Source: a virus. Taken from it: a stretch of DNA of 64,000 bases. The position numbers and the translations under genes are program-made. The stretch is taken from IMG/VR virus record IMGVR_UViG_3300031455_000001, positions 1-64,000 of that record; one strand, 5' to 3'. Positions within the stretch are counted from its first letter, which is position 1. Every line of letters starts with the position of its first letter. Of the stretch, positions 26,497 to 58,177 are shown piece after piece. Under the pieces are notes generated by a model that was not told where the DNA came from, did not search any database, and was given only the letters and a program-made list of their open reading frames with translations.

Positions 26497-26512
26497 TGTT
26501 TCACGTGAAACA
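26497..26512. promoter_or_regulatory. parS: parS site (ParB/Spo0J-binding palindrome)
   Basis: TGTTTCACGTGAAACA, perfect consensus, intergenic. Confidence 0.93.
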
Positions 26513-26523
26513 ATTTAATCTTC

Positions 26524-26895
26524 TTATTTTAAATATTCTAGCTCTGCTAGTTCGTCTGGAATATAAATATCAAAAATCGTATCATTCCAATATCTCTTAC
26601 TAGCAATATCAGCATTGTACTCAGCTATTTTCTGAGCAATCGTTGCTCTTTCGTACTCACTGAGATCTTGCGATCTACTTTCTTCATAACTTTCTTTGAG
26701 TGCATGATATCTTTCTACTTCTGCCAAGCCGCCATAATACATAAATGGTAATGGCATCAATAAGCTTAGAAGAGCAAGCGTTGAGATAGTAAACGATAAA
26801 ATTGCTAAATTGCTAAGATCATTGCGTTCCATCCATACATAAGAAGCGACAGTAGACAGTGTTAATAAGGTGATCAAGATTGCAAATGACAGCAT
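26524..26895 (-). CDS. Two-TM membrane protein flanked by parS sites
   Basis: Hydrophobic N-terminus, AGGAG RBS. Confidence 0.65.
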   Translation of the reverse strand: MLSFAILITLLTLSTVASYVWMERNDLSNLAILSFTISTLALLSLLMPLPFMYYGGLAEVERYHALKESYEESRSQDLSEYERATIAQKIAEYNADIASKRYWNDTIFDIYIPDELAELEYLK

Positions 26896-26926
26896 ATTAT
26901 ATTCTCCTTTTGATTAATGTTTTTAT

Positions 26927-26942
26927 TGTTTCACGTGAAACA
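26927..26942. promoter_or_regulatory. parS: parS site
   Basis: TGTTTCACGTGAAACA, perfect, intergenic. Confidence 0.93.
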
Positions 26943-27089
26943 TTTATTACTATTCTTCACAACTAGACACTTGCGAAGCATTTAAGGTGTTTAAATCATA
27001 ATCTGTGTGAGCCAGCACCGCTTTAGCTAAAATAAAACCGTTATCAATACGACTTCCAACATATCAAAACCCCTTTCTTGTATAAATTA

Positions 27090-27118
27090 ATTATATCATT
27101 ATTTTATGCTTTTGTAAA
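27090..27118 (-). promoter_or_regulatory. sigA-type promoter
   Basis: TTTACA-17-TATAAT with extended -10. Confidence 0.7.
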
Positions 27119-27125
27119 GTATTAT

Positions 27126-27614
27126 TTAAACTCGGTCTGCATTTTTATTTATCTCTACCTTGAGAATACCCTGATCTAAACAAACGTTATAAGACATATA
27201 ACTATTATTCCATTGATCTTCATCGTTCCAAGGTACATATATCGATGCTAAACTTTTATTTTCACTATCTAGAATATCAATAGATGCGATATCATTACAA
27301 TTAAGTATTCTCCCCAATATTTCTGGGCGGTCTTCTACGTTATTACTCAACGGGTTTCCTACATACATACCAAGAGGCTCATCATATTTTGATGGATTAT
27401 AATTAAGATCTTCTGCATCGTCAAAAATGATAGAAAAGGAGATATAATCTGTTTCATACACATTTTTGTCGATGTAGTTTTTGCCATAAAAAGAGGCTTC
27501 CCTTAGTGTGCCAGCATCAAAACTGTAAAATCTGTCAATAGGGATTGTTATTGATTCTACATTCTCAAATACAATATCTATATATTTGACTTCAGCTTTT
27601 ATATTTTCAAACAT
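27126..27614 (-). CDS. Hypothetical protein
   Basis: ATG at 27614 with GGGGTGGT RBS; the longer track start overlaps another ORF. Confidence 0.6.
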   Translation of the reverse strand: MFENIKAEVKYIDIVFENVESITIPIDRFYSFDAGTLREASFYGKNYIDKNVYETDYISFSIIFDDAEDLNYNPSKYDEPLGMYVGNPLSNNVEDRPEILGRILNCNDIASIDILDSENKSLASIYVPWNDEDQWNNSYMSYNVCLDQGILKVEINKNADRV

Positions 27615-27624
27615 AATACCACCC

Positions 27625-27792
27625 CTATTCAGTCCATTCATATGCATCAATGAATAGTTCATGATTTTTATTTTCACAATACTCTTCTGGATCACACAAA
27701 TAAGATTGTGAAAACTTGTTCGGAGTACCGACAAATCTTAAGCAAAGCTCTTTCAATTCGCATTTTTCGTTTTTACACATTGCAATATCCAT
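27625..27792 (-). CDS. 55-aa Cys-rich protein (not in ORF track)
   Basis: MDIAMCKNEKCELKELCLRF...; fits between neighbouring genes. Confidence 0.55.
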   Translation of the reverse strand: MDIAMCKNEKCELKELCLRFVGTPNKFSQSYLCDPEEYCENKNHELFIDAYEWTE

Positions 27793-27805
27793 TGTTTACA
27801 CGCCC

Positions 27806-28159
27806 TTAATTTTCATCTATTTGTTCAAAACTTACTGATTCTGAATAATAACCATTTGAGGAGCCATACCAGCGAATAGTGACATATCCCTTTACTGTAG
27901 CAAGCTTGTAGAAAGTCCATGTGGTGCTACCCCAATCATCCTCTTTTTGCTCAGCAGACACCTCAGCCATTGTAATAGGACTTCCGATTAAATCGTCTAA
28001 ATCACCTGCGATATCTTCAACCCATACTGATTCACAACAGTCTTGATAGTGATACATCCTATAGGCTTCACCAGACGATGTGTAAAAGTATAACTCATCT
28101 GAATCAACCTCTTCTATCTTAGTTAGCGTCTTATTCATTAGCTCTTCAAAATAACTCAA
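27806..28159 (-). CDS. Conserved phage hypothetical protein
   Basis: [32 protein letters not shown] motifs. Confidence 0.7.
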
Positions 28160-28211
28160 ACCACATCATCTCCCGTATTGTTTGTCGACTCACTCTGCAA
28201 GAGACATGTGA

Positions 28212-28828
28212 TCAATAATCTTCTTGCTCGCCTTTTAATTCTTTTCTGATATGCCTATTCAATTCTATGTCTATGTTGACTGTTCTCACGTTTCTTTCTT
28301 TTAGTTTTTCTATACCAGCGGTTAATGATTTTTTCATATCTTCTAAAATTTCAACATCATCTTTATCAAATGCTTGCCTCGCACCAATCATTCTACCACT
28401 ATCCAATACCCATCACTAATAGCGTCTTCAGCCCCTTTAAGTGAGTATCTAGCAGGAACACACATTGGATCATCCTCACTCACCCATGTTACTTCATATT
28501 CGTCATTCTTTAATTCTGCGTGAAAAGTAATTTTTTTATCAATTTCGCTATATAAAATATTATCAGACAATCTAAAACTAAATTTTTCTTTCATATTTTC
28601 ACCTCTCTGTAGAAAAGATTCATTTTATCTAAAACTTAAATTAACTATCGTATATCTTACAAGGGTATTAATGTCTACCATTACCTTGTCAATATTGTTC
28701 ACAAACACTAGTAATCCTGTTTCAACATCTTCTTCATCAATTATGTTACGAATATACTCTCCTTCTTTAATACAGATTGTTTGATTTTTTAGAGTATCTT
28801 GTGCAATGCCTGTAAAATACCTTCTCAT
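28212..28828 (-). other. Three small hypothetical ORFs (28212-~28391, 28388-28594, 28625-28828)
   Basis: Tightly packed co-oriented ORFs; RBS before the 28594 and 28828 starts. Confidence 0.55.
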
Positions 28829-28830
28829 GT

Positions 28831-29193
28831 TTATTCCTCCTGATCTTTGTATAGCTGTAACCTCTTGATATATTGCTTTGCTTCTGATCTTTTCATTGGT
28901 GGCAACCCAACCACTGTCAGAGAATCTTTTGGAATTTCAGTCAATCCACTATCATAAATCGCATAAAATTTTTCAGCTAACTTTTCCAAATCTTTCTGTT
29001 TGCCTTGTAGGATAATTTTCTTTTGTCCATTATGTCTCCAAAACCAAAAATTCATATCATCACCATAATTGGTTAAAGTTACAGCAATGTCTGTAGCCAC
29101 ATGAGCAACTTGTGCAGAGGTTTTACCTGTAGACATTTCTAAATCTTTATTAACTACTATGTATTGCACGATTTCATCATTCATGTTTATCAC
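28831..29193 (-). CDS. Peptidyl-tRNA hydrolase, Pth2 family
   Basis: VVNKDLEMSTGKTSAQVAH, QKKIIL, DSGLTEI..SLTVVGL. Confidence 0.88.
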   Translation of the reverse strand: MINMNDEIVQYIVVNKDLEMSTGKTSAQVAHVATDIAVTLTNYGDDMNFWFWRHNGQKKIILQGKQKDLEKLAEKFYAIYDSGLTEIPKDSLTVVGLPPMKRSEAKQYIKRLQLYKDQEE

Positions 29194-29218
29194 CTCTTAT
29201 TTTTTTGAAACTTATATT

Positions 29219-30836
29219 TTATTTACTCCAATTAACTCCACGACCACCATAAATAAATTGTGGTTCTTCATATTTAAAATACTTTTTAATATCTTCTTCT
29301 GACAACAACTTGTGAAAGTGGAATACTTGAACACCTCTGCCGCCAGTCTGTGTTTCAATTGTCCAATAACTATATGTTAAATCATATTTATGACCTTTTA
29401 AGAATTGATTATCTCTACCGAGGGTATCTTCCAATATGATTGTTTTCAATGCTACATACATAATTTCACCTCTGTATAAAATGGAAATCTATCAATCGAA
29501 AATCTCTAAAACGTTGTCTATTTTCGATGTTCTAAAGTAATAATCTGGATGGTTTTCACCTGTAAGATTGTCATTATTGCTAATCTTTTCTGATATCTTT
29601 TTCATAATCTCTGGCGCCACTTTTCTGTCATCTGTTTTTAGCACGATTTCAATCTTAATCATATAATTATCCTCCTGTATAAAGCTCGCATTTCATCTAG
29701 TCTAATTCCCACCAAAAATCAAACACTCTATGGAATTTACTTCCTTTTGGTTCAAACTCGCCTTTGTACTGTCTAATTTTTTTATTGGATTGCTTCTTCA
29801 AATAAGAAGAGCGTTTACCACGATAATATCTTTTTGGGTAAATACCTTCTTCAAACCACTTTCCATCCATCCAGACTGGAAACCAATCTGATTCAACCAT
29901 TTTCCAAAGCTTATTTTTGTGGTTGCGATTTCGTGCATATTTATTTTCACGTTTCTTTTTAGATTTCCTTTTTGGTTTTGGGTAGTAATCCCAATATTCT
30001 ATGCAACTTTCAATAGACCATATATCCATCTCATAATAAGCATCTTCGCTACCAAAAGACATTTCATTAACAATTAATCCTATACCAAAATCAAAATCTT
30101 GACCATCTAATTCTCTGTAAGCATTTATCTCATTTAGGAGATTAATATAGTCCTCTTTGGTTTTTGCTTCACTCGTATCAACAATCCAACCCATATAATC
30201 ACCCCTAAACTTGATAAAATGGAAATATTATCAATCCTCTAAAATTTCCAACAATTCTCTTAATAGAGATAGCTTGCCATAAGTCTCCCCGTGTTCCATT
30301 CCTAGTTCGTATGCGTCATCAAAATTACCACCGCTAGCATCACAAGCATTAAAATCTTCCCAATTTTCACCGTACATTTCTTCGTATTCTACCGCTTCAT
30401 TCTCTAACGATGCTATCTTAGCTAAAATTAATTCCTTCATTTTACAATCTCCTCCTTAGTTATGCGTCTATTAATAAAGAATAGTGCCATCTTGCTTTAA
30501 AGCAATTTCATATTTACCAATCTCACTGATTACTGCTTCATAAAGACCTAGACCTATTCCACCTTTATCTATCAATAGTTTCTCTGGTCTATTTGTTAAA
30601 ACTAATCCAAGTAGATCGTGCGCTTGAGAAGTAAATGAGCCGCTTAATCTTTTAAGATGGGATATACGACCTTCCTCAACTAAAATACGTGTAACTTTTG
30701 TATAAGCCTCTTTGCTATCTAGCTCTCTTGCCATATCTGCAATAATTATTGTCATTTTAATTTCCCTCAATATATATAGTATACCATTATATTTTGCTTT
30801 TGTAAAGGTGTTTTTGATGGTTACAATTTTCATCAA
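29219..30836 (-). other. Array of small hypothetical ORFs (29219-29461, 29492-29662, 29697-30194, 30231-30440, 30471-~30757)
   Basis: Co-oriented ORFs with RBS; 29492-29662 (56 aa) is absent from the track. Confidence 0.6.
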
Positions 30837-30966
30837 CTAAATATGCTAAAACTCTATGTTTTAAATACTTCTTATCCAATACTCTATAAAATGCTGTCAT
30901 AGCCGCCATCCAAACAGGAACATTCACTATGTTTTTATTGATAATAGTAAGTTTTTATTCAATAAA

Positions 30967-31359
30967 TTATTTTTGTGATTCACGTATTTTTTGTCGTAAG
31001 CTTTTAGGCAACTCTTTCCCAAATTCTTTAACACGTTTCTCTCTGTTCATCATCCAGTTTTGCAATTCCATATTCTCAAACCAATCCTCAAGAGTAGGCA
31101 AGAAACCCATGTCTTCAATTACATGTTGTTCACCTACGTATCTTGTGTATACTTTTTTACCATCTGAATTTACAAATGACTCACCAAATAGTCTTTCGGC
31201 TTCATATATGCCAGCAGTGTGATGTTTCAATGCTCTATGTCTCATATCTCCTAGATGAGCTTTGCTATCATCGAAATAATTATGAATATGTAAATAATCT
31301 TCCATTTTTCCACCAAAGTATTTGACTGACGACTTAGCGTGAATTTGAGGATGTGACAT
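30967..31359 (-). CDS. DUF6915-like protein
   Basis: MSHP..HAKSSVK.FGG, IH.YFDDSK, RHRALKHH..GI, GEQHV.ED; AGGAGG RBS before 31359. Confidence 0.7.
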   Translation of the reverse strand: MSHPQIHAKSSVKYFGGKMEDYLHIHNYFDDSKAHLGDMRHRALKHHTAGIYEAERLFGESFVNSDGKKVYTRYVGEQHVIEDMGFLPTLEDWFENMELQNWMMNREKRVKEFGKELPKSLRQKIRESQK

Positions 31360-31369
31360 TGATAACCTC

Positions 31370-31756
31370 CTAAAAGTTAATCTCTGTAATGTATTGATCA
31401 TATAAATCTTCTCGATAATCTGATAAAGTCTCGGTGATTAAATCGCGCAAATTCTCATTCCATCTCGAATGTTCGACTACAATATCCTCTATATTAACTT
31501 CATCGCCACTACTATCCACAGCAGTTACATCAGTGACCCACCAATCACTACCACCTTCGTCATCTGATTCGGGGTGAAAATCCCATGAAATTCGTGCAAC
31601 GTCTAATCCTACAACACTAAAGTCTTTTGAAATACTATCTTTTAATTCTACAGTCACTAATTCGACAACCACTTTGTTAAGCTCTTTTTCTAATTGACTT
31701 CTACGCTCTCTCAGGTTTTCTACTGATAAATTAATTACTGGTTCAAATTTAGTCAT
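31370..31756 (-). CDS. Acidic hypothetical protein coupled to the DUF6915-like gene
   Basis: ORF with GGGAG RBS. Confidence 0.55.
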   Translation of the reverse strand: MTKFEPVINLSVENLRERRSQLEKELNKVVVELVTVELKDSISKDFSVVGLDVARISWDFHPESDDEGGSDWWVTDVTAVDSSGDEVNIEDIVVEHSRWNENLRDLITETLSDYREDLYDQYITEINF

Positions 31757-32457
31757 TTTTATAATCTCCCTTTATTTTGTTTTAAATTATTTATACTGAA
31801 TACTGAATGCTGTCTCAGTTGGAATATTGGTCAATAGCAAAAGCATATCGCTCTTTATATACCAACTATCAGATGATGAATATGCAATTGTAATTCCATT
31901 ATTTTTTACAATTGTTCTCTTGGCTAAAGATATAGTTAGATAGTTATTGTCTTTTGTGATTTTCAAAAACTTTTTATACAGATCTTTGGATACTGAGATA
32001 AAAACTTTATCCATCGTGATCCCCATTTCTAATTTCTTTGTAAACATCAAAGTTGGAAATGTAGTCTCTATTAAGCCTTTTAACTGCTACTCTTTCACAT
32101 GTGTTCAGTGCTTCTGCTACATCAGATTGGCTTGCGAATCGCCTGTTTTCATGTTTACCAGATCGGTCTTTGTAAATGTAATAAATCCCACCAGCAATCT
32201 CTTCGAAAACAGTTGATGCGTAGTTGTTTAATTGATGGTACTGTTCATGAAATTTGTAGTAAATGTGCATTTTCCCACTCCTTATTGATCTTCTTCGCCA
32301 CAGTCTTTACAGACAAAAAGCCTGTTTCCTGTTGCTCTGTTTGTCGGATATCTTTTTAAATCAGATTCCTTTATGTATTTCTCCAAGACAAGATCGCAAT
32401 CCCAACATTCTAATTTAACTTTTATCTTCATCCCATCTCTCCTTTTATTATAATCTA

Positions 32458-32486
32458 ATTATATCATAATTTGTTGCAGTTGTCAA
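32458..32486 (-). promoter_or_regulatory. Consensus sigA promoter
   Basis: TTGACA-17-TATAAT, extended -10. Confidence 0.8.
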
Positions 32487-33034
32487 TGGCTTTTTAAAAC
32501 AACTTCTAAAGTTTTTGGTTGTAGATGGATAATGTTTCTCTGTCTTTTAATAGTGTATTTTATGCAGTTCCAAGTCCCTCCATTCTCCACTCCATCCCAA
32601 ACAGCAATCACAAACCTTGAATTATCAACCATCCACTTATTCCTATTCTGCATACACCATGCGGTATAGGAATCTTCTGAAACATAATGCACATGATCTG
32701 CCTCCCTTGTTATATGAGTCCAAGTTTCCTTATCTGCATTTTTCCACTTTGATGAGTGATTAGAGCAAGGTACTGCGCACACAAGTCTGATATGAGGATA
32801 TTTCTCTTTCAACTTTAAAACAGTTAGAGCAGACCAAGTATCAATCCCCAAAGCCATTCCAGAAACAAAAGTATCAATACCACGTTTCACAATAAGCCTT
32901 TCGATGACTGCTCTTAGTTTCAAGATTATCTTTCGATTTCCATCTGTTCTATAATCATATCCAAACCCAAGTTTATCTGGTCTGTGACCCGTGAAACAAG
33001 CTGTCTTTTCAAATTTAATATCCAATCTTATCAA
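32483..33034 (-). CDS. SLOG-family protein (YpsA/DUF1273-like)
   Basis: CFTGHRP, SGMALGID, RNKWMVDNS, VWDG..GGT. Confidence 0.85.
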   Translation of the reverse strand: MIRLDIKFEKTACFTGHRPDKLGFGYDYRTDGNRKIILKLRAVIERLIVKRGIDTFVSGMALGIDTWSALTVLKLKEKYPHIRLVCAVPCSNHSSKWKNADKETWTHITREADHVHYVSEDSYTAWCMQNRNKWMVDNSRFVIAVWDGVENGGTWNCIKYTIKRQRNIIHLQPKTLEVVLKSH

Positions 33035-33080
33035 CCCCTAAAAAAATAAGAATAGCCTTTTGACTACTCTTATTTTACCA

Positions 33081-34295
33081 TTATTTATTGTATTTGTCAA
33101 TCGTTAATTCATTGTTTTCGCAGTTGTTTTTAAAGATAAACATTCGATTATGTGGATCTCCATCTGTATCTAAGTTTGAGTATCGACCCTCACTTATCAA
33201 CACTGTCTCCAAACTGTTGATCTGATCGCCAAGATTGTGATCAATATATAAGTGAGTGGCATTTGCCGTTTCAAAAGTTTGATGAGACGGTCGCATTGAT
33301 ACTGTAGACCCATCGCTGAACCTTACATATCGTCCTTTATTATCCATACTACTATTTCTTGCTTCTCTTTCACCATCTAACAATTCGTTGACGATTGAAT
33401 TAAAAAGCTTCTCTCTGACAGCAATGTTTTTGAAATCACCGTTATCAAGATATAGAATTACAATTTTCTTAGCTCTCATTGTTATCATCTCCATACTGCT
33501 TCATAAATTCTAAGAATGTAAAATCCCCGCCATGAGTATTTAATTTAAACGTCTTGAGTCTTTCTTCAATTGGCTTATCGTAGTCATACAAACTTTGGGT
33601 CAACCTGTCATCTAAAAGTGATGGCATGATTTTTGTAAGCATATACATCCGTGCATCTGGTTCTGTGTATCTGATATCATCGTCAATATAGACGTCTGTA
33701 AATTTCATTCCTGTCAACCCGTAATCAGAAATAGGGTATAGCACAATGTCTGTGCCATCTTTGAATTGAACCCTAGAGATTTCACGAGTAATTCTTTCTG
33801 AACTTACAATTCCATTGCTATCTCCAGAATACAATACATTGTGAGCTAACTCATAGACTAATCTCTCACCAATTTGCACATTGTTATACTTCTTTTCATT
33901 ACAATATAAAACAACTATCTTCCGCATTATTACACCTCTTTATCTTTAACAAACCCTCCACGAACAACATATCCATGAGCAATAATTTCACTAATCATCT
34001 TTGAGTCAACTGATTCATCAATCAGCACTCCATTAGGATAATTATCAATGTTGTTTTTCAACTCAATAGTAAAGTTTTGCGCAACTCTTATAATTTTAAT
34101 ATCAGGATTTATTTTAAGAAAATTATCAGCCTGTAATTGCTTTCCTACAATAATAGCTAGGTCTTCTTTTACCGCTTTATCTGCAAGCAATTTATTCTTG
34201 TTGATGATGTCATGAGCATGTATCAGCTCACCTTTTTTAAGCCTGTACTTAACTGTCATCTCTAAAAGGATATGATTTACTTTCAATTTATCCAC
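33081..34295 (-). other. Three hypothetical ORFs (33081-33494, 33469-33927, 33930-34295); first two look paralogous
   Basis: Shared KIV.LY...N....E.L...F.DG......T..YID pattern in the first two. Confidence 0.55.
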
Positions 34296-35618: not shown

Positions 35619-35632
35619 CTCTTATTATATTA

Positions 35633-36247
35633 TTATTTTTTACGCTTTGATTCTAAGATAGCATCGACCAATCCTAATTCTACTGCTTCTTTTGTGCGGA
35701 TATACCAGTCGCGCTTTTCTCTTTGTACTTTTTTCAGCTTTTTCTTTTCGATTTTAGTCAGGCTGACAACATACTCATCGTACATATTATTTAGTACATC
35801 TGCTTGCTTGCAATAGTCTCCAATGCCTTCAAACTTATCATGAATGCCGCCACTGCCTTGATGATACATAAAAGTTGCAAGAGGATGAGCGAATCGCTTA
35901 TGCCCAAATGCAAAGATCAAAAAACCCATACTCATAGCTTTTCCATAACAATATGTATAAATTGGAGTTACACTTGTATCAATAGCACCACATAGAGCGA
36001 ACCCATCATATATAGATCCTCCATATGTATTAACGATAATCTTAATGGGTTCACGCACATGTTTGTCATCTTTTGACTCTTTCTCTTCGTCAATTCTGTT
36101 GATTTCAAAAATGCTCATGATGATGTTCTCAATCGACTCAGCATTAACATCCTTATTAAGAATAAATTCACGCGCATCTCTTTTTTCCTCAATAGTGGTT
36201 GTAGTCTTAACTTCAACTTCATTCTTCGGTGTTTGTTCGTTCCCCAT
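35633..36247 (-). CDS. clpP: ClpP-like protease subunit (paralog 2; intact triad)
   Basis: VNTYGGSI, AMSMG (Ser), FMYHQ (His), RDWY (Asp), GLVDAI. Confidence 0.85.
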   Translation of the reverse strand: MGNEQTPKNEVEVKTTTTIEEKRDAREFILNKDVNAESIENIIMSIFEINRIDEEKESKDDKHVREPIKIIVNTYGGSIYDGFALCGAIDTSVTPIYTYCYGKAMSMGFLIFAFGHKRFAHPLATFMYHQGSGGIHDKFEGIGDYCKQADVLNNMYDEYVVSLTKIEKKKLKKVQREKRDWYIRTKEAVELGLVDAILESKRKK

Positions 36248-39724: not shown

Positions 39725-39932
39725 CCTTATACTCCTTGTCTATCTCTTGTCTAGCCATTATCTTCTTATATTCAGCTTCAGAAACACTTCTCTCACCTTT
39801 ACATTTTGGGCAATAGATACAGAAAAACTCCTGCAAACTATATCCTACACCTTTGTTTGTATTCTTTTTTTCAGATGTTAATAAATGATAATGGTGTTTG
39901 CACAATCTATTTCTTAATAAACTTAACAGCAT
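39696..39932 (-). CDS. Small Zn-ribbon protein (paralog-like to 58523-58819)
   Basis: CKH..YCPKC motif shared with 58523 ORF. Confidence 0.55.
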   Translation of the reverse strand: MLLSLLRNRLCKHHYHLLTSEKKNTNKGVGYSLQEFFCIYCPKCKGERSVSEAEYKKIMARQEIDKEYKDDRFKINSD

Positions 39933-40537
39933 TATTCCACCTCCATTGGTGCGACCTTTTTGAAGTGCGTTTTTAACATATTGTAGATCGGTTTAAATTG
40001 CTTATCTATTTCATCCCAATCATTGCCCATAGCAAACAGTTTGCCATTGAAGTGATTGGCGCTACTATATTTTACAATTCTTCCATACTTAGCTATTTGA
40101 ATACCAAAGTTCAAAATACGTAATGAATGATACATACTTTTCTTACCGTTATAGTTGTAGTTTTCTTTCATTTTCTTTTTGCACTTAACATAGCTAACTG
40201 AGGAAGCAGATGAAATAGCGTGTCGTAGCTGATTGTAATTTAGTTTGAAATAACCAACATAAGGATCATCTTGCTTTTGAAATATACATTCCAAAACACT
40301 AATAGTGTGAGCTTCTATGTTTTTAATAAATAAAGATTCACTATAAACTTTGAAGTCAACATTCGCCTTGTGATTCTCAACACTGTAGACAAAATCAATT
40401 GGATCGCTCTCATTAGGTTTCACTACCAAGATAAAGTCATAATCACTTGCAGGATTATTCACACCATAAACTCTCGATCCGTAACTGTAGCATTTTAATA
40501 TTGTATGTTCGATTTTCTCTCTGGTTTCCCACGCCAT
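39932..40537 (-). CDS. Pol-beta superfamily nucleotidyltransferase
   Basis: YGSRVYG....SDYDF motif; KSMYHSLR. Confidence 0.8.
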   Translation of the reverse strand: MAWETREKIEHTILKCYSYGSRVYGVNNPASDYDFILVVKPNESDPIDFVYSVENHKANVDFKVYSESLFIKNIEAHTISVLECIFQKQDDPYVGYFKLNYNQLRHAISSASSVSYVKCKKKMKENYNYNGKKSMYHSLRILNFGIQIAKYGRIVKYSSANHFNGKLFAMGNDWDEIDKQFKPIYNMLKTHFKKVAPMEVE

Positions 40538-40640: not shown

Positions 40641-40656
40641 TGTTTCACGTGAAACA
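40641..40656. promoter_or_regulatory. parS: parS site
   Basis: TGTTTCACGTGAAACA, perfect, intergenic. Confidence 0.93.
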
Positions 40657-40703: not shown

Positions 40704-41621
40704 TTACAATCCGTAGGTTGCATACCCGCAGTAAATGCCACAAAAGCCATATCGCATACTATAAGAGTCTCTTGTATCCATTCGCTTTCCACAACCGCTA
40801 CAATAGTAACGTTCTATATCCTTTTTAGAGATCTTGGTAAATCGCCATCTTTGCTTTTTCATCCTATACTCTCCCCTATTTGATCGAACGGAAACAATTA
40901 ATATTCCCGAATTTTAATATCCCACGTAGTAGAAGATATTTTTCTCTTCATAGATTCTATAGATTCAGATTCTTTAATAATACCCTTAACATACAAGCGT
41001 TGCTTTTCTCCCTTGTTGGTACCATTTATATTCCCGAACCGTTTCAAAAGACGTGTTTTAAATTCTTCAAAGCTTGTGTATTCCAGTTCATATTTCTTCT
41101 CGATGATCGTACCGCACGATATAGTCACTTCCACACGCTTTTCCATTCGTTTTTCTCCTCCCTTTTTGTTCGAACGGTCTATTTTTCAACTACTTCTAAA
41201 TTCCATTCCTTAATAAGTTTTGCCATTAAAGGTTTTGTAAATCTAAACTCACCATTTTCAGCGCATAGAAGCATTGAACCTCTTTCTTCTTCATACACAG
41301 GGTAGGATTCATCTTTGTAAAATACTCTTCCTTCTGCTTCACAATTTTCATCAAATTTAACGTGGTATGCTAATTTACTCATTCCAATTCCTCCTTTTTG
41401 TTTAAAACCGTTTGGTTCTACTGTCACTTACTCACCCATAGACTGTCTAACAACTCTAGGTAATCATTTAGATCTTCTTCATCCATATTGTCTACGTCTC
41501 TACACTGTAAATCGAACTTTTTTTCTGTATTCCTTATATACTCTCTATAGGTTTCAGTATTTTTGGGCAAATAACAAAGATCACATATACGTGTATCTAA
41601 ATCCCCTGTTTTGATAACCAT
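40704..41621 (-). other. Small hypothetical ORFs (40704-40862, 40898-41146, 41179-~41382, 41424-41621)
   Basis: Co-oriented with strong RBS; 40704-40862 is a 52-aa CxxC..CxxxC ORF absent from the track. Confidence 0.6.
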
Positions 41622-41667
41622 TTTTCGCTATTCACCCTTTCTCTTTATGGTTCTATTACGTCAAAAT

Positions 41668-41683
41668 TGTTTCACGTGAAACA
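41668..41683. promoter_or_regulatory. parS: parS site
   Basis: TGTTTCACGTGAAACA, perfect, intergenic. Confidence 0.93.
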
Positions 41684-41831: not shown

Positions 41832-41847
41832 TGTTTCATGTGAAACA
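41832..41847. promoter_or_regulatory. parS: parS site (1 mismatch)
   Basis: TGTTTCATGTGAAACA between a stop codon and an RBS. Confidence 0.85.
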
Positions 41848-48453: not shown

Positions 48454-48560
48454 AAAAATACCTCCTATTTAGTTAGACACAAAAGGCACAATTATCAATG
48501 TGCCTTTTCATGCGTATCCTATAATTATATCATAATTTATTGCATTAGTCAAATATTATA

Positions 48561-48977
48561 TCAATACTTGGCATCTTTGAATATCTGATAACATTCATTA
48601 GCAACAGACACCATTTCAGAAATCGTATCGAATAAATACTCTCCACTTACTTTTGAAAATCTTGGTTTCTCTTCATTATCGATCAAAACGTTCTCAACAA
48701 ACATCTCTCTTGGTCTTAGCCAAAATCCACCGTAGATATCTTTATATAAAACGTATACACCATTAAGATTTTTGTCTTCAAAACAAAACTGTTCAGCGCC
48801 TGATCTTTTGTCTTTTACTTTAACAATGGTAACGTTTTGATTAGGATCTTCAGTATGAATAGCCACAGTAACATTTTCAATCAATGATCTTCCAATGAAT
48901 CCTTCTGACAGCTTGGTTACATATCCAATAACATAATATAATCCACCTTTATAATGTCGGTAAATCATCATAACCAC
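48561..48977 (-). CDS. DUF1653-like protein
   Basis: YRHYKGG.Y, HTE, WLRP..MF, PRF. Confidence 0.7.
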   Translation of the reverse strand: MVMMIYRHYKGGLYYVIGYVTKLSEGFIGRSLIENVTVAIHTEDPNQNVTIVKVKDKRSGAEQFCFEDKNLNGVYVLYKDIYGGFWLRPREMFVENVLIDNEEKPRFSKVSGEYLFDTISEMVSVANECYQIFKDAKY

Positions 48978-49062
48978 CTCTTTTATATGTAAGTGTGCAG
49001 ATATTTCTTACACCTAATCTTAGTATACCATTATTATTTGTAATTGTCAAACTTCAATAACA

Positions 49063-50580
49063 CTAAACAGCTTCTTCTGTATTGTTCTCTACTGTTCTTT
49101 TCACACCTTGGAAGTTTAAATTGAATTTTCTAGCAAATGATCTTAGAGCTGAATTTTCTTCTGGTGTGGCACTTCTATTGTGTTTTCCTCTAGCTTGGAC
49201 AATAGCGTATGTATTAGGATTAATTTCCACTGTGAGCAATGACTCATCTGGATTCTTTCTAGTTCGTAAAAAGATGATTAACGATCTATGATTGGATACG
49301 CGACTGACATATCCTCCAACGCAATGTGATTGTTGAGATCCTTCATTTACTAACAATGAGCTTGTGAATGGCACTACAACAACATATTTTTCTTTTGTCC
49401 AACCATCCCATTCTTTGTATTCTGGATTATTCATTGCTAATTCATATTTTTCACTCTGTATTTTATCTTTTACAAAGCTCAAGTTTCTTGCTACAACATC
49501 ATGGTATGTTCGTAGAAACCTTGGATACTTAACATACTTGGGGGTTCTTAAATCTGCATGCATCTTAAGATAGTCAAAGAGATATTGTATCGTAGCTGAT
49601 TTACTCAAACCTTGGGAGACTTCACACTCATATACATACTCTATCAGCCTCTTGACATCTAAGTTCATATATTTTGACATTGAAAACAAACCTGTAAATC
49701 CATTATTTCTAAAGCTATATGATTCATTTCTGCCGTATAAGGTGATGTAATGAGCAGATATAAAAGCGCCAAGCCTTAAACTTCTTGTATCATAAATAGT
49801 GACACCATAGTACTCTTCCAACTCTTTGTTGTATTCAATCAAAGAGTTGAATTTATCATAATAATGTCTTAAACTCTTTATTTCTTCTCCTTTATCCTCT
49901 CCTCTTTCAAAATTAACACGGAGGCGTGATAGCTGTGCTTTTGCATTGGACACTTCTTTATAAGCTTTTTCTTTATAGTTTCCATCCATGTTTGCCGATC
50001 CTTGAAGTTCTCTGACTATTTCTTTATATATCTTCAATTCACCTTTTGTCCATCCGACTATCTCATGAGGTTTTGTTGATGGGTTATTGTAGGACAATTC
50101 TACAACTTCCCCAATAATCGGAAGACCAGCTTTATAAAGAATCTCCAGAGTGTTGTAATTTTCAATTAGACGCTTTAAAGCCCTCCCCATCATTGCAACT
50201 CTTTCTCTCCCCATATATCCAATTTCTCTAAGCAAAAGGGTATACATACCTTTATTTGCTTCAACTTCAATAAGATCAATGATCTCCTCGTCTCTACCCA
50301 TGAATCTGTCAAAATTATCTACACTACTAGTTACTGTATGCAGATTTCTTTTGATGTAGTATTTTCCGAATCTTAAATCATAAAACATCTCTGATAGTGT
50401 TTCTTTCTGTTTAATTGGAGTCTCTTCTATTTTATACAAATGGAAGCTGTAGTCGTTTTTGTCCTTCAAATAAAATGTTGATTTCGACCCATCTGAATGA
50501 TTAAATTCCATTTTGTCTTTGATCTTTTTTACTTCGTTAATTGAATAACTAAGTTCCTCTTTTACTGTTTTAAATTCCAC
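49063..50580 (-). CDS. PcfJ-domain protein
   Basis: DYLKM, L..EG..QSHCVGGY, IFLR....SLLTVE, QARGKHN. Confidence 0.85.
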   Translation of the reverse strand: MEFKTVKEELSYSINEVKKIKDKMEFNHSDGSKSTFYLKDKNDYSFHLYKIEETPIKQKETLSEMFYDLRFGKYYIKRNLHTVTSSVDNFDRFMGRDEEIIDLIEVEANKGMYTLLLREIGYMGRERVAMMGRALKRLIENYNTLEILYKAGLPIIGEVVELSYNNPSTKPHEIVGWTKGELKIYKEIVRELQGSANMDGNYKEKAYKEVSNAKAQLSRLRVNFERGEDKGEEIKSLRHYYDKFNSLIEYNKELEEYYGVTIYDTRSLRLGAFISAHYITLYGRNESYSFRNNGFTGLFSMSKYMNLDVKRLIEYVYECEVSQGLSKSATIQYLFDYLKMHADLRTPKYVKYPRFLRTYHDVVARNLSFVKDKIQSEKYELAMNNPEYKEWDGWTKEKYVVVVPFTSSLLVNEGSQQSHCVGGYVSRVSNHRSLIIFLRTRKNPDESLLTVEINPNTYAIVQARGKHNRSATPEENSALRSFARKFNLNFQGVKRTVENNTEEAV

Positions 50581-50594
50581 TCATATACACTTCC

Positions 50595-52739
50595 TTATTG
50601 TGTTAAAGATGTAAAATCATCTTTTTTAAGATACTTTCCAATACCAGCGTTTGAAGCTCTATAATAACCAGCCTCTTTATATTCTTCTTCTAATAAATAA
50701 TAAGAAACTACATGACTACCGTTTTTAGACTTCATCACTTGACTTCCTTGAGCCGTTTTACTTGTTTTTGAGTTGACCATTGAAGTATTGAATACTAACG
50801 CTTTATCAATAGAGGAGATCGCTAACATGTCAACGTCTTCATGTGTATGTTTGAAAACTAATGGTTTTTTATTCGCATATGCATTCTTAAGCATCGATCT
50901 ATTCTGTTTAGTTTGATAGGCTGATAACTCAATCTTTGCAACTTTACCATCATCAAACCCGATAAGTAAATTGCCAGAATAATCATTAGTGACGGTTACG
51001 TAAAGAATCTTTTCATCATTTTCTAACTCTAAGAGAGTAGGCAGGTATTCTCCTAAGACAGATGGTTTATGATCTTTTATTTCATATGATTTATATTTAA
51101 AGACATTTTTCTGGTCTGTGAAAACCAAAATATCTGAATTGTTAGTTGTCTCGAACTCGCTAATGATCCTATCTCCATCTTTAACGTTAATAGCGAAGTT
51201 ACCACGTAATGATGTGAGAGGAATTTTCTTTATATATCCTTCTTTAGTTATAAAGATTTTTACATTATAATTATCTACGGTTAGAGATTCACTTTCAATT
51301 TTAGGTACATCTGAGATATTTATGATATTTGATTTGCGCTCTTGTCCGTATAGATCTTTGACAATCTTAAGTTGACTAATTATTAGCTTTGCAATTCTCA
51401 TTTTGCTGTTAATCAGATCTCTAAGATCAGCGATTTCATTTTCAAGAGTATCAATTTCATTTGTACGTTGAATTAAATACTCTTTATTTAAATGTCTTAA
51501 TTTAATTTCTGCAACAAATTCAGCTTGCAATCTATCTATGTCAAAAGCCTTAATAAGATTGTTTACAACCTCACTATTAGACTTGGTTTCACGAATAATC
51601 TTAATAGCTTTGTCAACATCAAGAAAAACTTTTTTAAGAGCTAATAACAAATGCCTCTTCTCTTCTTTCTTTGTAATTTCAAAATTGAGTCCTCGCTTAA
51701 TTGCTCCAGAGCGAAATTTTAACCATTCGTTAATAATTTGTTTTACGCCCAACACTTTAGGTCTTCCATCTACAATTATATTAAAATTGCAACCAAAAGA
51801 AGATTGCAATGGTGTGAGTTTAAATAACTTCTCCACTAAAAGCTCTTTGTTGGTATTGTTTTTTATAGTAACTTCAATGCCTTTAGAGTCTTTCCCATAA
51901 ATATCTTCAACATCTACAATATCTTTTATTTTTCCATCTTTAACAAGTTGAGAAATTTTTTCAATAACTACTTCGAAATTCGTATTATATGGCATTTCCT
52001 CAAATATAATTGAATTTTTTTTAATTATATACTTCGCCCTAATATCAAAAGAGCCGCGACCAGTATTGAAGATATTATTAAATGCAGTTTCGTTGTAGAC
52101 AATGCTTCCGCCAGTAGGGAAGTCTGGTGCTTTAACATGCTCTGATACTTCAACTTTCGGATTCATGATGAGGGCAATTGTAAGATCGATAATTTCATTC
52201 AAATTGAATGATGCAATATTGCTTGCCATACCTACTGCCATTCCGCTTTGAGGATTGACAAGAATATTTGGAAATGTAACTGGAAGCAGTTTTGGTTCTT
52301 TTAAAGTATTATCGTAATTATCAATCATATCTACTGTATTTTTATCAATGTCTTTAAAAAGCTCTTTTGCAACATCTGATAATCTTACTTCAGTGTAGCG
52401 CGCTGATGCGTATTTCATGTCTCTAGAATATTGTTTGCCAAAATTCCCTTTAGAATCGATGAACGGTAGCAAGAGCGATTCTGCATCTACAGACATTCTC
52501 ACTAATGTTTCATAAATACTCATATCGCCATGTGTATGTAGAAACATAGTCTGCCCTACTACCCCTTGAGATTTTTTCCTAGAGCCTTTTAACAATCCCA
52601 TCTTCATCATGGTGTATAAAATACGTCTTTGAGATGGTTTAAAGCCATCAATTTCTGGTAGCGCTCTGTCAGTAATGACATAGGCTGAATATGGCATGTA
52701 ATTCTTCTCTAGAGCTTCTGTTATGTTTTGTTTAAGCAA
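50595..52739 (-). CDS. Type IIA topoisomerase subunit A (GyrA/ParC-like)
   Basis: RALPEIDGFKPSQRR, HTHGD, ARYTE catalytic Tyr, PDFPTGG; short CTD. Confidence 0.93.
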   Translation of the reverse strand: MLKQNITEALEKNYMPYSAYVITDRALPEIDGFKPSQRRILYTMMKMGLLKGSRKKSQGVVGQTMFLHTHGDMSIYETLVRMSVDAESLLLPFIDSKGNFGKQYSRDMKYASARYTEVRLSDVAKELFKDIDKNTVDMIDNYDNTLKEPKLLPVTFPNILVNPQSGMAVGMASNIASFNLNEIIDLTIALIMNPKVEVSEHVKAPDFPTGGSIVYNETAFNNIFNTGRGSFDIRAKYIIKKNSIIFEEMPYNTNFEVVIEKISQLVKDGKIKDIVDVEDIYGKDSKGIEVTIKNNTNKELLVEKLFKLTPLQSSFGCNFNIIVDGRPKVLGVKQIINEWLKFRSGAIKRGLNFEITKKEEKRHLLLALKKVFLDVDKAIKIIRETKSNSEVVNNLIKAFDIDRLQAEFVAEIKLRHLNKEYLIQRTNEIDTLENEIADLRDLINSKMRIAKLIISQLKIVKDLYGQERKSNIINISDVPKIESESLTVDNYNVKIFITKEGYIKKIPLTSLRGNFAINVKDGDRIISEFETTNNSDILVFTDQKNVFKYKSYEIKDHKPSVLGEYLPTLLELENDEKILYVTVTNDYSGNLLIGFDDGKVAKIELSAYQTKQNRSMLKNAYANKKPLVFKHTHEDVDMLAISSIDKALVFNTSMVNSKTSKTAQGSQVMKSKNGSHVVSYYLLEEEYKEAGYYRASNAGIGKYLKKDDFTSLTQ

Positions 52740-52783
52740 ATTTATATCACTCCTTACTTGTTAATATATCATTATTTATTGCA

Positions 52784-54739
52784 TTAATCAAGCGATTCTT
52801 TTAGGTATTCGTGAAGATTATCTTCAATAAACTGCTTTCTTTCTTCTAGGTTATCACCAAGAAACATGTTAAATGCTTTAACGGTTTTTTCAACATCTTC
52901 AGGTACAACTTGAATCAATTTTCTAGTTTCTGGATTCATTGTTGTTTCCCACATCATTTCTGCTGTGTTTTCTCCCAAACCTTTTGATCTTTGTACAGTA
53001 AAACTACCCTTCATTTTTGAAACAATTAAATCTTTCTCCTTATCACTGTATGCGAAAACAGAAACATCATTCTGTTCTATTTCATATAGAGGTGATTCAA
53101 CAATATAAACACAACCATCTTCAATTAGAGTTGGCATGAGTCGATGAATGAGAGTCAATATTAATGTACGAATGTGGAAGCCATCAACGTCTGCGTCCGT
53201 TGTGATTACAATTTTTGACCATCGCAAATTATTCTTATCAAATGTATGAAGGTCTTTAGCGTGTTTTGATTTTACTTCTACTCCACATCCAAAAAGCCTA
53301 ATCATATCAACTATAATATCGTTTTTAAATATCTTATCGTAGTCAGCCTTTAGACAGTTGAGAATTTTTCCACGCAAGGCATAGATGGCTTGAATTTTCT
53401 CATCTCTTCCCATCTTTGTTGAGCCTAATGCTGATTTCCCTTCTACAAGATATAATTCAGTTTTAGTATTGTCTTTTGATTTACAGTTCACGAAGCCATC
53501 TACTCTATTGCTAAGATTGTTCACTGTTCCAGAGAGCTTCTTTTTGATATCTAATCTTGTTTTTTCCGAATGCTCTCTAACCTTCTTGCTAACCAATACA
53601 TGTTTTGCGATTAAATCCATTTCGCTTTTGTTCTCAATAGAATAAGAAGCAAAGAAATTATCTAAAATATCCCTCATTACCGATTCATAATATTTTACGT
53701 AAGATGCAAACTTGGTTTGATTTGCGAACACAGGAAAATAAGATTTAAAATCAATTACATAATTTAAACCCAATAAAACATCTTCTCTAGTTATTTGCTT
53801 TTCATTCTTTTTATACATTCCATTATCACGAATATATTTATTTAAAATACTACGCAATCCGTTTACCAGTCCATCAAAAATTGTTCCGTGGTGTATTAAA
53901 TTGCTACCATTTAAAAACTCAATCTGTGTACAATCTTCATCTTGTCTTGTGTATTTTATGGAAATTGAGGCTTGTATATCATCTACAACATTTTCACCAT
54001 TCTGTTTAGAATTATGAGATGTATTTTTAGAAAAGTGAATTGTTTCATGGATTGCCTCCAGATCAGAAGTGCTATATTCTAAAAACTCTTTCGTATCTTC
54101 ATAACTATACAATTCTTTTACTCCATTAACCTCATCGAAAACCTCAACTGAGCCATTAATTAAAGATGCTTGCTGAGATGCTATTTCACAAAGCTCTTCA
54201 AATGTGAAGTAATTTCCCTCGTATATATCATCGTCTAAAGTGTATTTGATCTTTGTATATGTATTATCTGATTTTCCAATTATACTTAAAGGTTTTACAT
54301 TTTCACCTTTGTGATAAGAAATTGAGTAAATATTCTTGTCAGGTCTTGACACCTCAAATGTTACATCTTGTGCTGAGAAAGTTAGTACGGTGTTGAAAAC
54401 GCCATTCACCCCAACAGTGTAATCGCTATTGTTTATGCCATTATCATATTTTGTCCCTGCAAACAATGTTTCAAATAGTAATTTATAATTCTCAACTCCC
54501 TCTGAATTTACTCCATCTATAGGAAGTCCTTGACAGTTATCTTCTATCGTTAAAGTCTTATCATTATGTAAAGTGATTTTTATCTTATCTCCATTGCCCT
54601 TATTGATCTCATCTGCACTATTTCCAACCAATTCCTTCACGGTGTGAATGACGGCAATGTGATTGGACGCACCTAACCATACCGAAATCTTTTTTCTAAC
54701 TTTCTCTTTTTCAGTTAACTGCTTTATATTCTCTGACAT
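52784..54739 (-). CDS. Type IIA topoisomerase subunit B (GyrB/ParE-like)
   Basis: ELVGNSADE, DNCQG, VEGKSA, LRGKILN, DADVDGFHI, KGLGEN. Confidence 0.93.
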   Translation of the reverse strand: MSENIKQLTEKEKVRKKISVWLGASNHIAVIHTVKELVGNSADEINKGNGDKIKITLHNDKTLTIEDNCQGLPIDGVNSEGVENYKLLFETLFAGTKYDNGINNSDYTVGVNGVFNTVLTFSAQDVTFEVSRPDKNIYSISYHKGENVKPLSIIGKSDNTYTKIKYTLDDDIYEGNYFTFEELCEIASQQASLINGSVEVFDEVNGVKELYSYEDTKEFLEYSTSDLEAIHETIHFSKNTSHNSKQNGENVVDDIQASISIKYTRQDEDCTQIEFLNGSNLIHHGTIFDGLVNGLRSILNKYIRDNGMYKKNEKQITREDVLLGLNYVIDFKSYFPVFANQTKFASYVKYYESVMRDILDNFFASYSIENKSEMDLIAKHVLVSKKVREHSEKTRLDIKKKLSGTVNNLSNRVDGFVNCKSKDNTKTELYLVEGKSALGSTKMGRDEKIQAIYALRGKILNCLKADYDKIFKNDIIVDMIRLFGCGVEVKSKHAKDLHTFDKNNLRWSKIVITTDADVDGFHIRTLILTLIHRLMPTLIEDGCVYIVESPLYEIEQNDVSVFAYSDKEKDLIVSKMKGSFTVQRSKGLGENTAEMMWETTMNPETRKLIQVVPEDVEKTVKAFNMFLGDNLEERKQFIEDNLHEYLKESLD

Positions 54740-54768
54740 TGAATCACCGTCCTTTTATCTATATGTTT

Positions 54769-54797
54769 ATTATATCATTAATTATTGCACTTGTCAA
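54769..54797 (-). promoter_or_regulatory. Consensus sigA promoter for topoisomerase B
   Basis: TTGACA-17-TATAAT, extended -10. Confidence 0.8.
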
Positions 54798-55524
54798 GAA
54801 CACTTCTTTTAACAAGCTCCATGATTAAGTTTTCGATCTTCTTTTTTAATTCCTCATTAGGTTCAAATGAGTGATATTTCTGCTTTAAATTAACAAATTT
54901 AGAGTCGTGATAATGCTTGATAAAATTTACGAAAACATCTTTTGTAAAAAAACCCTCTCTGATTGATTGCATGAACTCTAAGTCTTCACCTTCATATGTG
55001 ATTGCGCCTTTAAAATCTTCAAAATTAGTTGCTTCAAAATCAACGATCACCTTAAGACATCTATATGCATGTTGGGCTTGTTTTGTATCATAGGAGTATC
55101 TCTCCACCAGATGTTGTGTTCCTTCTGTACCTTTATGTAACAAAGACATCTTTCGATTGTGCATGCCACCACAAGCATTAAATAAGTAGGGCAGATTCAT
55201 TTTAAAAATATCTTTTCTTAGTGAAAAAATCTCTTCTAGTTCTGGATTCCCTTGTGGAATGGTCAATTCATTTGATGCTAACACTTCAAGAAAATTTATA
55301 TTTGATTTAAAAAACAATTGAGATAATTTTCTGACATCATGGATATCATGATCTTCTGTTTCAGTTACCGTCATTTTTGAATACTGTTTTCCTGTATATA
55401 GATCTTCAAATGTTGGAGCAACAAATAATTTATAATCTTTATCAGATTCTTCTGTTGCAAGGTTATAATTCCATGAACCAACAAGGGCTTTTAGTAAAAT
55501 TTCTCTGTCTTCAATTTTCATCAA
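54778..55524 (-). CDS. Pol-beta nucleotidyltransferase (RlaP/Nuc-transf-like)
   Basis: VGSWNYNLATEESDKD, KSNINFLEVL, YDTKQAQHAYR. Confidence 0.8.
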   Translation of the reverse strand: MMKIEDREILLKALVGSWNYNLATEESDKDYKLFVAPTFEDLYTGKQYSKMTVTETEDHDIHDVRKLSQLFFKSNINFLEVLASNELTIPQGNPELEEIFSLRKDIFKMNLPYLFNACGGMHNRKMSLLHKGTEGTQHLVERYSYDTKQAQHAYRCLKVIVDFEATNFEDFKGAITYEGEDLEFMQSIREGFFTKDVFVNFIKHYHDSKFVNLKQKYHSFEPNEELKKKIENLIMELVKRSVLDKCNN

Positions 55525-55526
55525 AT

Positions 55527-56270
55527 TTACTCCTTACTATATAATTCTGGATATTTATCTTTTAAGTAGCTCCAACTTACACCTTTAAGTATAGACCTCA
55601 CTTGGGATATGGAAATACTATATTTTTTAGATAATTCTTTTTGTGTAATTTTACCTTTCCTATATTCTTTTATCATGCAGATAACCGATCCTTCTGCCAT
55701 CTTTGATCTTGGATGTTTTTCTCCAGTATTTAAATCACTCAAATGATTTTTTAAATCATCCCATTCTCCATTTGCAAACTTGTCTTTTCTAGTTTTACTG
55801 ATCTTTATATAGGCTTCATCTGGTAATTTTCTATTACTATAGTCTAAACCCATATGAGATTCGCTTATCTTCTTTTTTGTTTCTTCTGATAATTTCTTAC
55901 CATAATTATAATGTTTTTCACCACTACGATTTTTAAAATTTTCCTTTGTTTCTTCTGAATGTTTGAAACCTAATGTAGAACCTGCGTTCTTAAGTATATT
56001 GTATCCAATCTCTCTATTGTATGACTGCAAATAATCAAGCCAATATTGTTCTCTGATAAGTATAGCATCTACCTCCACTATTTCGATTATTAAAAATTCA
56101 AAAGCCTTTTCTTCGTATTTATTCCAAGCATTTTGTAAATATTTATTTCTGTGCTTATTTCCCCTTAGATTTCTCCTATGATCGGAAAATCTAAGTTTTA
56201 TATTAACAGAGCTACCAATATACATTTTTCCATTAATAACATTTTCTAATTTGTAAATTCCGCTCTCCAC
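55527..56270 (-). mobile_element. Free-standing GIY-YIG homing endonuclease with NUMOD3 motifs
   Basis: GIY.....GKMYIGSS...R, REQYW, GYNI, HSEETK / LSEETKKKISES; GTG at 56270 (the track start MFHVKH is the translated parS). Confidence 0.88.
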
Positions 56271-56289
56271 AACATTACTCTTTCCCTTA

Positions 56290-56305
56290 TGTTTCACATG
56301 AAACA
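56290..56305. promoter_or_regulatory. parS: parS site (1 mismatch)
   Basis: TGTTTCACATGAAACA at the last codons of 56287-56508. Confidence 0.85.
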
Positions 56306-56514
56306 TTTTTTATAATCTCATTTGCTAAATCTAATGCTTCCTCTTTTGTTATTGCCACTACTGCACTAAATTCAGCTTCAAACTCCTCATCATAGTTAAT
56401 TACTTCAATAAAAAATAAATCAGAATTTGCTTCTTCATTATCAATTACTACACGATCTCTTTTATAATCATCTATTTTAGTGAAATATATTTTTTTCATA
56501 TGAATCACTCCTTA

Positions 56515-56530
56515 TGTTTCACGTGAAACA
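56515..56530. promoter_or_regulatory. parS: parS site
   Basis: TGTTTCACGTGAAACA, perfect, between stop codon and AGGAG RBS. Confidence 0.93.
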
Positions 56531-58161
56531 TTTAATAATCCCTTTTTCCACAGTCTTTACAAAGTGGAAAATCAACCAGATTGTGAATAGTCATTTCTAC
56601 ACAACAATCGACACAAAAATCTTTACCGCAAGACTCACACTCTGCAATGTAGTCTTCACTTGTGCTTTCGCACATGTGACAAAATTTATAGTTGCGAATA
56701 TATTCATTATTATCTAACATTTCTCTAATTACTTTAATTTGATCCACCGTTGCGTCTGGATTTCTGTTTAGCCAGTGACCCAATTCATTCCATCTTATTG
56801 CCTGCTTATTTTTATATGTATTACATATTTTCTGAATATGAAAACGTGCTTGATCATTCAAATGAATACTATGTGCAACATTGACCTCATGAATTAATCT
56901 GTCAATCATTTCTTGTGTTAATTTTTCATAATTTTCCACTAGATTAATCTCCTCCTTGTTATGTTCAGATGGGTTACTTGAAACTGTTGGCTTTAATCAT
57001 TCCTAGTAACCCTTCATATATATGTACTTCTCTTTCAATTTCTATTAAAAGTTGAGGTTGCTCCTCATAGATCGTACCTTCGTGATGCTTCAATAATTCC
57101 TTTGACCGTTCTACTCCATCATTCATAAATCCAATTAGGCGATCTATATCGACTTGAATATAAGGATTTTTATCTATTCCTATTTTCGATGAATTACATT
57201 TAAACTCTTTTGAAATGGCTTTGCTAGTCATGCTTTTCCTCATGGTATATAGGAGTAACAGGTGGCATCTTTGGGTTAATTTCGTGACTTGGCTTTTCAA
57301 CTGATAGGCTACTGTTAATCTGTTGAAACGGACGAAACAAGATTCTTACTATAAGTTCAATTGGATTATTTTTTCTCATTAAAAATCCCTCCTTTTGAAA
57401 TTTCAGACATAGGCATGAAATTTCCTTCGTAACATCTCTTGCAGTGGTATATACTTAAGTCTATTTCCTCCCAATAAGTCTTAACCATCTCATTTGATAA
57501 AAATTCATCTCCACAATGGTCGCAATTTCGTTTTGGTTTTACATTTTTCATATAACAACCACCCTTACCACCCTTTTTGTGGACAAAGGTTTAGTTAATA
57601 AGAAACAAATACCTGTTTCCCATCTTCAAAATCTCTCTTAGCAGAAATATATTTTTTATATTCCTCGCAGTATTTTTTAAGTTCATTGAATCCTCTTCCT
57701 GTCTCACTTCTGAATTGCTGTAACGCACTTCTATCATCATCTTTTTCAATCAAAGCCTTTACTTCGTCACTCATATACCTAAAATGGTCATACTGTATGT
57801 CATATCCAGTAAAATCATCTTTTGTTGCAGGTCTGAAAAACATTACCTCCCCTCCTATATCGTTCAACTGTCCGACAGTTTAATCGAACGGTTCGGCTAT
57901 TCTTGACCAACAAATGTGTTGTAATTAGTAGGAATATTTAATTGTACATAAAAGTCTTTTTCGCAATGATCGCATTCCGTTTCAATAACCTCTTCATCTT
58001 CAAATATTTCAAAGCACCTGTTTAAATCAGTTACCTCTTGTTCTTCTCCACAATGAGGACAAATCGGATATTGATTCTTCCATAGCTTTATATCATTATC
58101 TTGATACAATCTTTTACTCATTACTTTCATTCCTCCCTATATGGTTCTATTACGTGGTAAT

Positions 58162-58177
58162 TGTTCCACGTGAAACA
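58162..58177. promoter_or_regulatory. parS: parS site
   Basis: TGTTCCACGTGAAACA matches TGTTNCACGTGAAACA; intergenic. Confidence 0.92.

Follow-up and report, generated by a model that had tools for sequence, protein, structure and literature searches.

The IMG/VR virus record IMGVR_UViG_3300031455_000001 (155,345 bp, 94% complete according to CheckV) contains 13 copies of parS, the 16-bp site of the chromosomal Spo0J(ParB)-SMC system of Bacillota. From their sequence, we predict that these 16-mers are probably working loading sites for the ParB protein (Spo0J) of the host, which would serve the capture of the phage genome in the forespore and/or its inheritance. A sequence-only reading of the first 64 kb of the record (hereafter the window) had described eight such sites; the present analysis covers the whole record. 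It is assumed that the phage most likely borrows the host ParB, because it combines 13 near-perfect parS copies with the lack of any ParB or ParA gene, and because phage phi29 provides a precedent. The observations in support are the identity of the sites, their excess over chance, their placement, the missing ParA and ParB genes and a patchy, partly syntenic conservation, from which we infer ParB binding and all effects downstream of it.

parS sites in the phage genome

The contig is phage DNA. The window begins with a structural arm on the plus strand (1-16 kb), which includes genes for a tape measure and a DUF859 siphovirus tail protein, followed by a long minus-strand block encoding the DNA polymerase III alpha subunit, ligases, ribonucleotide reductase, topoisomerase subunits and RecJ. 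This gene set and the CheckV completeness exclude that the contig is an origin-proximal piece of a host chromosome, a possibility raised in the sequence-only reading.

The sequence was searched with the pattern TGTTNCACGTGAAACA, permitting mismatches, and dinucleotide-preserving shuffles served as background. All eight copies described before were recovered in the window, six as perfect matches and two with one mismatch in the core (Table 1). With up to two mismatches, 17 strand matches were found in the window compared to 0.07 expected, the largest value obtained in any shuffle being 2. The count over the full genome, which had been proposed as a check, resulted in 13 sites (10 exact and 3 with one mismatch) in five or six clusters, whereas the reversed pattern gave no match in the whole 155-kb record. 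In a k-mer census of the whole genome, parS was the top over-represented 12-, 14- and 16-mer. The phage sites differ from each other only at position 5/12 and in the central CG.

The sites are clustered, since for 10 of the 13 the next site is no more than 1.2 kb away (P = 0.0002 if placement is uniform, P = 0.002 if it is restricted to non-coding DNA). The clusters had also been called evenly spaced. This description fits inside the window, where the intervals are 14.7 and 15.6 kb, but it fails genome-wide, because the further sites beyond the window make the spacing of the 13 sites over 155 kb irregular. Using a simple gene caller, according to which 18% of the genome is non-coding, 10 of the 13 sites fall entirely between genes (P = 7e-6), and none is found in the late arm of approximately 47 kb (0/13, P = 0.009). 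For the window this agrees with the initial description, i.e. seven intergenic sites, one site over the last codons of a small open reading frame (ORF), and no parS in the structural arm. The intergenic sites sit within operons, where the typical site occupies the gap from a stop codon to the next ribosome-binding site, and most sites are located 15-50 nt upstream of start codons. An association with terminators or promoters was rejected, since none was found. The sites in the window have no abutting terminator or strong promoter, the nearest strong promoter being approximately 150 nt away, and none of the approximately 45 near-consensus extended -10 sigma-A promoters mapped in the genome overlaps a parS. 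The flanks of the sites are unrelated except for an A/T-rich two-base extension and one 16-nt pair at 41668 and 58162, and the idea of a mobile element carrying parS was rejected for this reason. The 16-nt flank of this pair, TATGGTTCTATTACGT, is common to 41649-41664 and 58143-58158, lies three bases from parS and occurs at these two sites only.

No match to the profiles ParB_N (PF02195), HTH_ParB (PF17762) or AAA_31/ParA-Soj (PF13614) was obtained at E <= 1 in all six frames of the 155 kb, while the positive-control genomes were matched. The absence of parAB noted for the window hence applies to the whole genome, which lacks the cognate pair of ParB and ParA genes of a self-encoded ParABS locus of the P1, N15 or actinophage type.

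Table 1. Location and genetic context of the parS sites in the phage record
Site	Position	Context
Perfect palindromic parS	26497..26512	11 nt after stop of ORF 26524-26895; 111 nt upstream of core HTH/Zn-ribbon gene 25948-26385
Perfect parS	26927..26942	Leader of ORF 26524-26895; ~150 nt downstream of sigma-A promoter 27118-27090
Perfect parS	40641..40656	Intergenic, between 40704-40862 and nucleotidyltransferase gene 39932-40537
Perfect parS	41668..41683	46 nt upstream of ORF 41424-41621; 16-nt flank in common with 58162
One-mismatch parS, CATGTG core	41832..41847	Intergenic between two mini-ORFs; variant also in chromosomes
One-mismatch parS, CACATG core	56290..56305	Last five codons (VSCET*) of 70-aa ORF 56287-56499; directly upstream of GIY-YIG gene
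Perfect parS	56515..56530	Gap between stop of 56532-56939 and ribosome-binding site of 56287-56499; 1 nt / 15 nt left over
Exact match, parS with C at position 5 (TGTTCCACGTGAAACA)	58162..58177	40 nt upstream of Zn-ribbon ORF 57897-58121
Exact match	97199	
Exact match	97558	
Exact match	98111	Inside lipoprotein gene
One-mismatch parS	106863	Inside RecD2-like helicase gene
Exact match	124417	

Comparison with Bacilli chromosomes and related phages

The same pattern with up to one mismatch was applied to 81 Bacilli genomes (1.7-7.3 Mb), which represent the host class. Matches to parS were found in 80 of them, typically 2-4 sites per genome with a maximum of 9. The 13 phage sites exceed the count in every sampled chromosome and their density is approximately 100-fold higher, so that the statement that it rivals that of a whole chromosome is well founded. 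The chromosomal variants include TGTTCCACGTGAAACA and TGTTTCACATGAAACA, and the same variants occur in the phage (C at position 5; CACATG or CATGTG core). Judging from these common variants, the phage sites are constrained in the same way as genuine ParB sites. They share with the chromosomal sites of Bacillota the identical 16-bp sequence, a variation limited to the positions tolerated in chromosomes, and the clustering. However, the chromosomal sites (2-9 per genome) are found beside soj-spo0J and oriC and often inside genes, whereas the much denser phage sites are orphan and mostly intergenic.

Based on DnaE (approximately 70% identity), the nearest named phages are PBC2, Kirov, Thrax1, Thrax3, FADO, PJN02, 2S-4, PK-3 and vB_BcoS-136, all of them siphoviruses of 160-170 kb. 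The hosts of named phage relatives are endospore-forming Bacillales, for example Bacillus, Rossellomorea and Lysinibacillus. For the DUF859 tail protein, the best matches share only approximately 40% identity. With 30% DnaE identity, Tsamsa-like phages are much more remote; they were rejected as relatives, since they gave short DNA matches only, and parS is absent from five of them. The count of parS in relatives, another check that had been suggested, gave 0-4 sites in a patchy pattern (31 relatives surveyed, up to one mismatch), with approximately 0.03 chance sites estimated per genome of such size. Four perfect parS were found in vB_BcoS-136, three sites each in PBC2, Thrax1 and Thrax3, and one each in Kirov and in a 202-kb provirus. 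None was found in Tsamsa, Skywalker, Izhevsk, Thrax2 and KoopaTroopa, in FADO, PJN02, 2S-4, PK-3 and LC76P1, in eleven other IMG/VR contigs and in three plasmid records.

In vB_BcoS-136, all four sites are intergenic and lie within 1.05 kb upstream of gp72. The ortholog of gp72 in the phage (454 aa, 41% identity) is preceded by the sites at 97199, 97558 and 98111. Because parS precedes the gene in both genomes, the cluster 97199-98111 is, by gene order, syntenic with that of vB_BcoS-136; the flanks have diverged, and the 16-mers are perfect in vB_BcoS-136. A search for the gp72 family gave three more loci, none of them with parS, and other orthologous loci including that of Tsamsa are also without it. 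Only one of the three sites of PBC2 is intergenic, two being located in genes (thyA and PBC2_192), and none of the three is common to the phage under study. The in-gene parS at 98111 and at PBC2 92946 (thymidylate synthase) are read in the same frame, as V-P/S-R-E-T-F. The search for closer relatives resulted in 12 IMG/VR contigs with 0-1 sites, among genome contigs the only hits were distant prophages of Paenibacillus and Aquibacillus without parS in their flanks, and the metagenome search gave one relative with no parS.

FADO/PJN02-like genomes of 162-166 kb have been deposited as circular plasmids (NZ_CP076118.1, NZ_CP106792.1) of B. amyloliquefaciens and B. subtilis isolates. These deposits suggest that the phage family can be carried extrachromosomally and, as the plasmid records have no parS, that such carriage is possible without the sites.

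Proposed borrowing of host ParB and its alternatives

Five parS sites have been described in phi29, and Spo0J is involved when this phage enters the prespore (PMC2731898), which makes it a valid precedent, as the sequence-only reading had proposed. Like phi29 and Nf, whose spore entrapment depends on host Spo0J (PMC2731898, citing Meijer et al. 2005), the phage studied here is Bacillus-type and carries several host-type parS without encoding ParB, the presumed use being the segregation machinery of the host. However, phi29 is a protein-primed podovirus of 19 kb, which has five sites and whose promoters carry functional Spo0A boxes. The present phage, a siphovirus of 155 kb, is unrelated to it; its 13 near-perfect sites form five or six clusters, Spo0A boxes are not in excess, and it encodes an actin-like partition ATPase of its own together with a recombinase and an MrpR-like repressor. 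In this phage, the cytidine triphosphate (CTP) clamp of host ParB would load at the clusters, which extend over approximately 100 kb of the non-structural region, and would spread outward from them. Through the loaded ParB, the phage DNA would become attached to the host's partition and SMC machinery near the origin, so that the phage genome could be captured in the forespore, as a phi29-like virospore, and/or be inherited by daughter cells in a repressed extrachromosomal state. Since phi29 has five parS sites and a prespore entry involving Spo0J, forespore capture and/or inheritance in a repressed carrier state is, by analogy, the most likely payoff. The MrpR-like repressor, the tyrosine recombinase, the actin-like ATPase and the relatives deposited as plasmids fit a carried, non-lytic state.

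To our knowledge, experiments have documented the borrowing of host ParB via parS only in the phi29 family of small phages. What the present phage adds to this known principle is its type, the number and dispersion of its sites, and the presence of a repressor and a separate partition system next to them. Multiple centromere sites dispersed along the genome of a phage able to persist outside the chromosome are also known from N15 (sopC sites) and from the parABS systems of extrachromosomal actinophage prophages. But, these encode their own ParA and ParB and have a private site specificity, whereas the studied phage encodes neither and carries the universal host site. The mobile element SGI1 has been described as hijacking the parABS partition of another replicon, the IncC plasmid (PMC10954446); there, a Gram-negative system is concerned, and a helper plasmid takes the place of the host chromosome as the partner. 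If the prediction is true, the parS strategy extends to big plasmid-like phages. The genome would then offer a natural multi-cluster parS array for studying the CTP-dependent loading of ParB, SMC recruitment and virospore formation, with the relatives bearing 0-4 sites as ready-made comparisons.

Several points weigh against the borrowing of host ParB. The distribution of parS is patchy, most of the 31 relatives being without sites, and with the closest available relatives at approximately 70% DnaE identity a site-by-site test of conservation is limited. Spo0A boxes (TGTCGAA) are not enriched, the genome having 16 compared to approximately 17 estimated by chance, and, one box apart, they do not abut strong promoters, hence the phage does not repeat the full strategy of phi29. 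An actin-like partition ATPase is already present. Because the phage owns this module and plasmid-borne relatives lack parS, the sites do not seem to be needed for carriage in this phage family, and they resemble an accessory more than the phage's only means of partition. The proposed plasmid-like partition via parS is weakened by the same two facts. A more far-reaching version, which we regard as possible and put forward tentatively, is that the phage acts as a centromere parasite. With its larger number of ParB sites, the phage genome would merge with or out-compete the origin-proximal ParB-SMC complexes of the host, fold itself alongside the actin-like system, ride into the forespore and the daughter cells, and retune the control of host segregation and sporulation. 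If so, a large phage of the temperate type would depend in general on host ParB, and this dependency would not be a peculiarity of phi29.

Among the rival explanations, chance or a misassembled piece of origin-proximal host chromosome is excluded by the expectation of 0.07 in the window, the empty reversed-pattern control, the phage gene set with its CheckV value of 94%, and the fact that chromosomes have only 2-9 sites in megabases. An element acting at the RNA level, i.e. an intercistronic hairpin for processing or stability, is very improbable. It would suit the transcribed, intercistronic location of the sites, and the 16-mer can form a 6-bp stem, but the stability of this stem is low (-3.9 kcal/mol), no fold is obtained on the coding strand for the TGTTCC variants of sites 97199 and 98111 (0.0 kcal/mol), and the sequence rather than the pairing is conserved, without any compensatory changes seen. 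ParB titration is a live alternative, to which we assign a low probability. In this case 13 sites per replicating copy would soak up host ParB and thereby interfere with the control of Soj/DnaA, with the segregation of origins, with SMC loading or with the start of sporulation, and positioning would not be the point. A site count above that of every sampled chromosome, the location of the sites in the early and replication region and the presence of another partition system in the phage agree with such a sink. However, the relatives manage with 0-4 sites, parS-loaded ParB is still the active form for the stimulation of ParA, and the sequence alone cannot separate a sink from positioning.

It is also doubtful, if somewhat less so than titration, that a DNA-binding protein of the phage other than ParB uses the palindrome as an operator or roadblock, in which case the identity of the palindrome with parS would be due to convergence or to deliberate competition with host ParB. 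The position of most sites shortly upstream of start codons, the many unannotated small proteins of the genome and the core HTH/Zn-ribbon gene only 111 nt from site 26497 would favour this explanation. The last, however, occurs in every relative, also in those lacking parS, and was rejected as the parS binder for this reason. Moreover, the odds of a random 16-bp palindrome matching parS are approximately 1.5e-5, and the site variants copy the chromosomal ones. The phage encodes an MrpR-like protein at 71560-72573. MrpR is the master repressor of SPbeta, which binds the repeated element SPBRE in promoter regions (PMC10516654). SPBRE resembles the parS set in being a short conserved element repeated approximately ten times per phage genome, and the studied phage has an MrpR-like protein, but parS avoids promoters: no strong promoter overlaps or abuts any site. 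A different palindrome, CTTTTGTCAAAAG, is present in five exact copies (88787, 89259, 90017, 90570 and 92601), each over the -35 element TTGACA of a strong early promoter. It suits the repressor better and is the candidate operator of the MrpR-like protein, and parS is an unlikely one since CTTTTGTCAAAAG occupies the early promoters.

Partition module and other motifs

The gene for the actin-like ATPase (ALP_N; annotated as 'partition protein' in PHROG) is located at 109101-109949 and is followed by a small ORF downstream; the genome also encodes a Replic_Relax protein and a tyrosine recombinase. These genes belong to a plasmid-like module at 109101-116959, which consists of the ATPase, a 97-aa ORF, an M23 peptidase, a 938-aa protein (phrog_5156), Replic_Relax and the recombinase. 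An AC-N16-CATATAGTA motif resembling promoters of mother-cell sigma factors is found just upstream of the ATPase gene. In the whole genome, no Noc-binding sequence (NBS) or RacA ram site was present, the two SpoIIIE recognition sequences (SRS) are about the number estimated by chance, and no phage sigma factor was found. Only one Spo0A box abuts a strong promoter, namely the box at 72703-72709, which lies at the -35 element of the promoter before the MrpR-like gene. The minus strand carries a free-standing gene for a homing endonuclease of the GIY-YIG/NUMOD3 type (55527-56306), which directly follows parS 56290 on the downstream side. The approximately 45 near-consensus promoters mentioned above follow the form TTGACA-N17-TGnTATAAT with a conserved spacer and represent an unusually uniform set, examples in the window being those at 27118, 32486, 43113, 54797 and 60690 (-).

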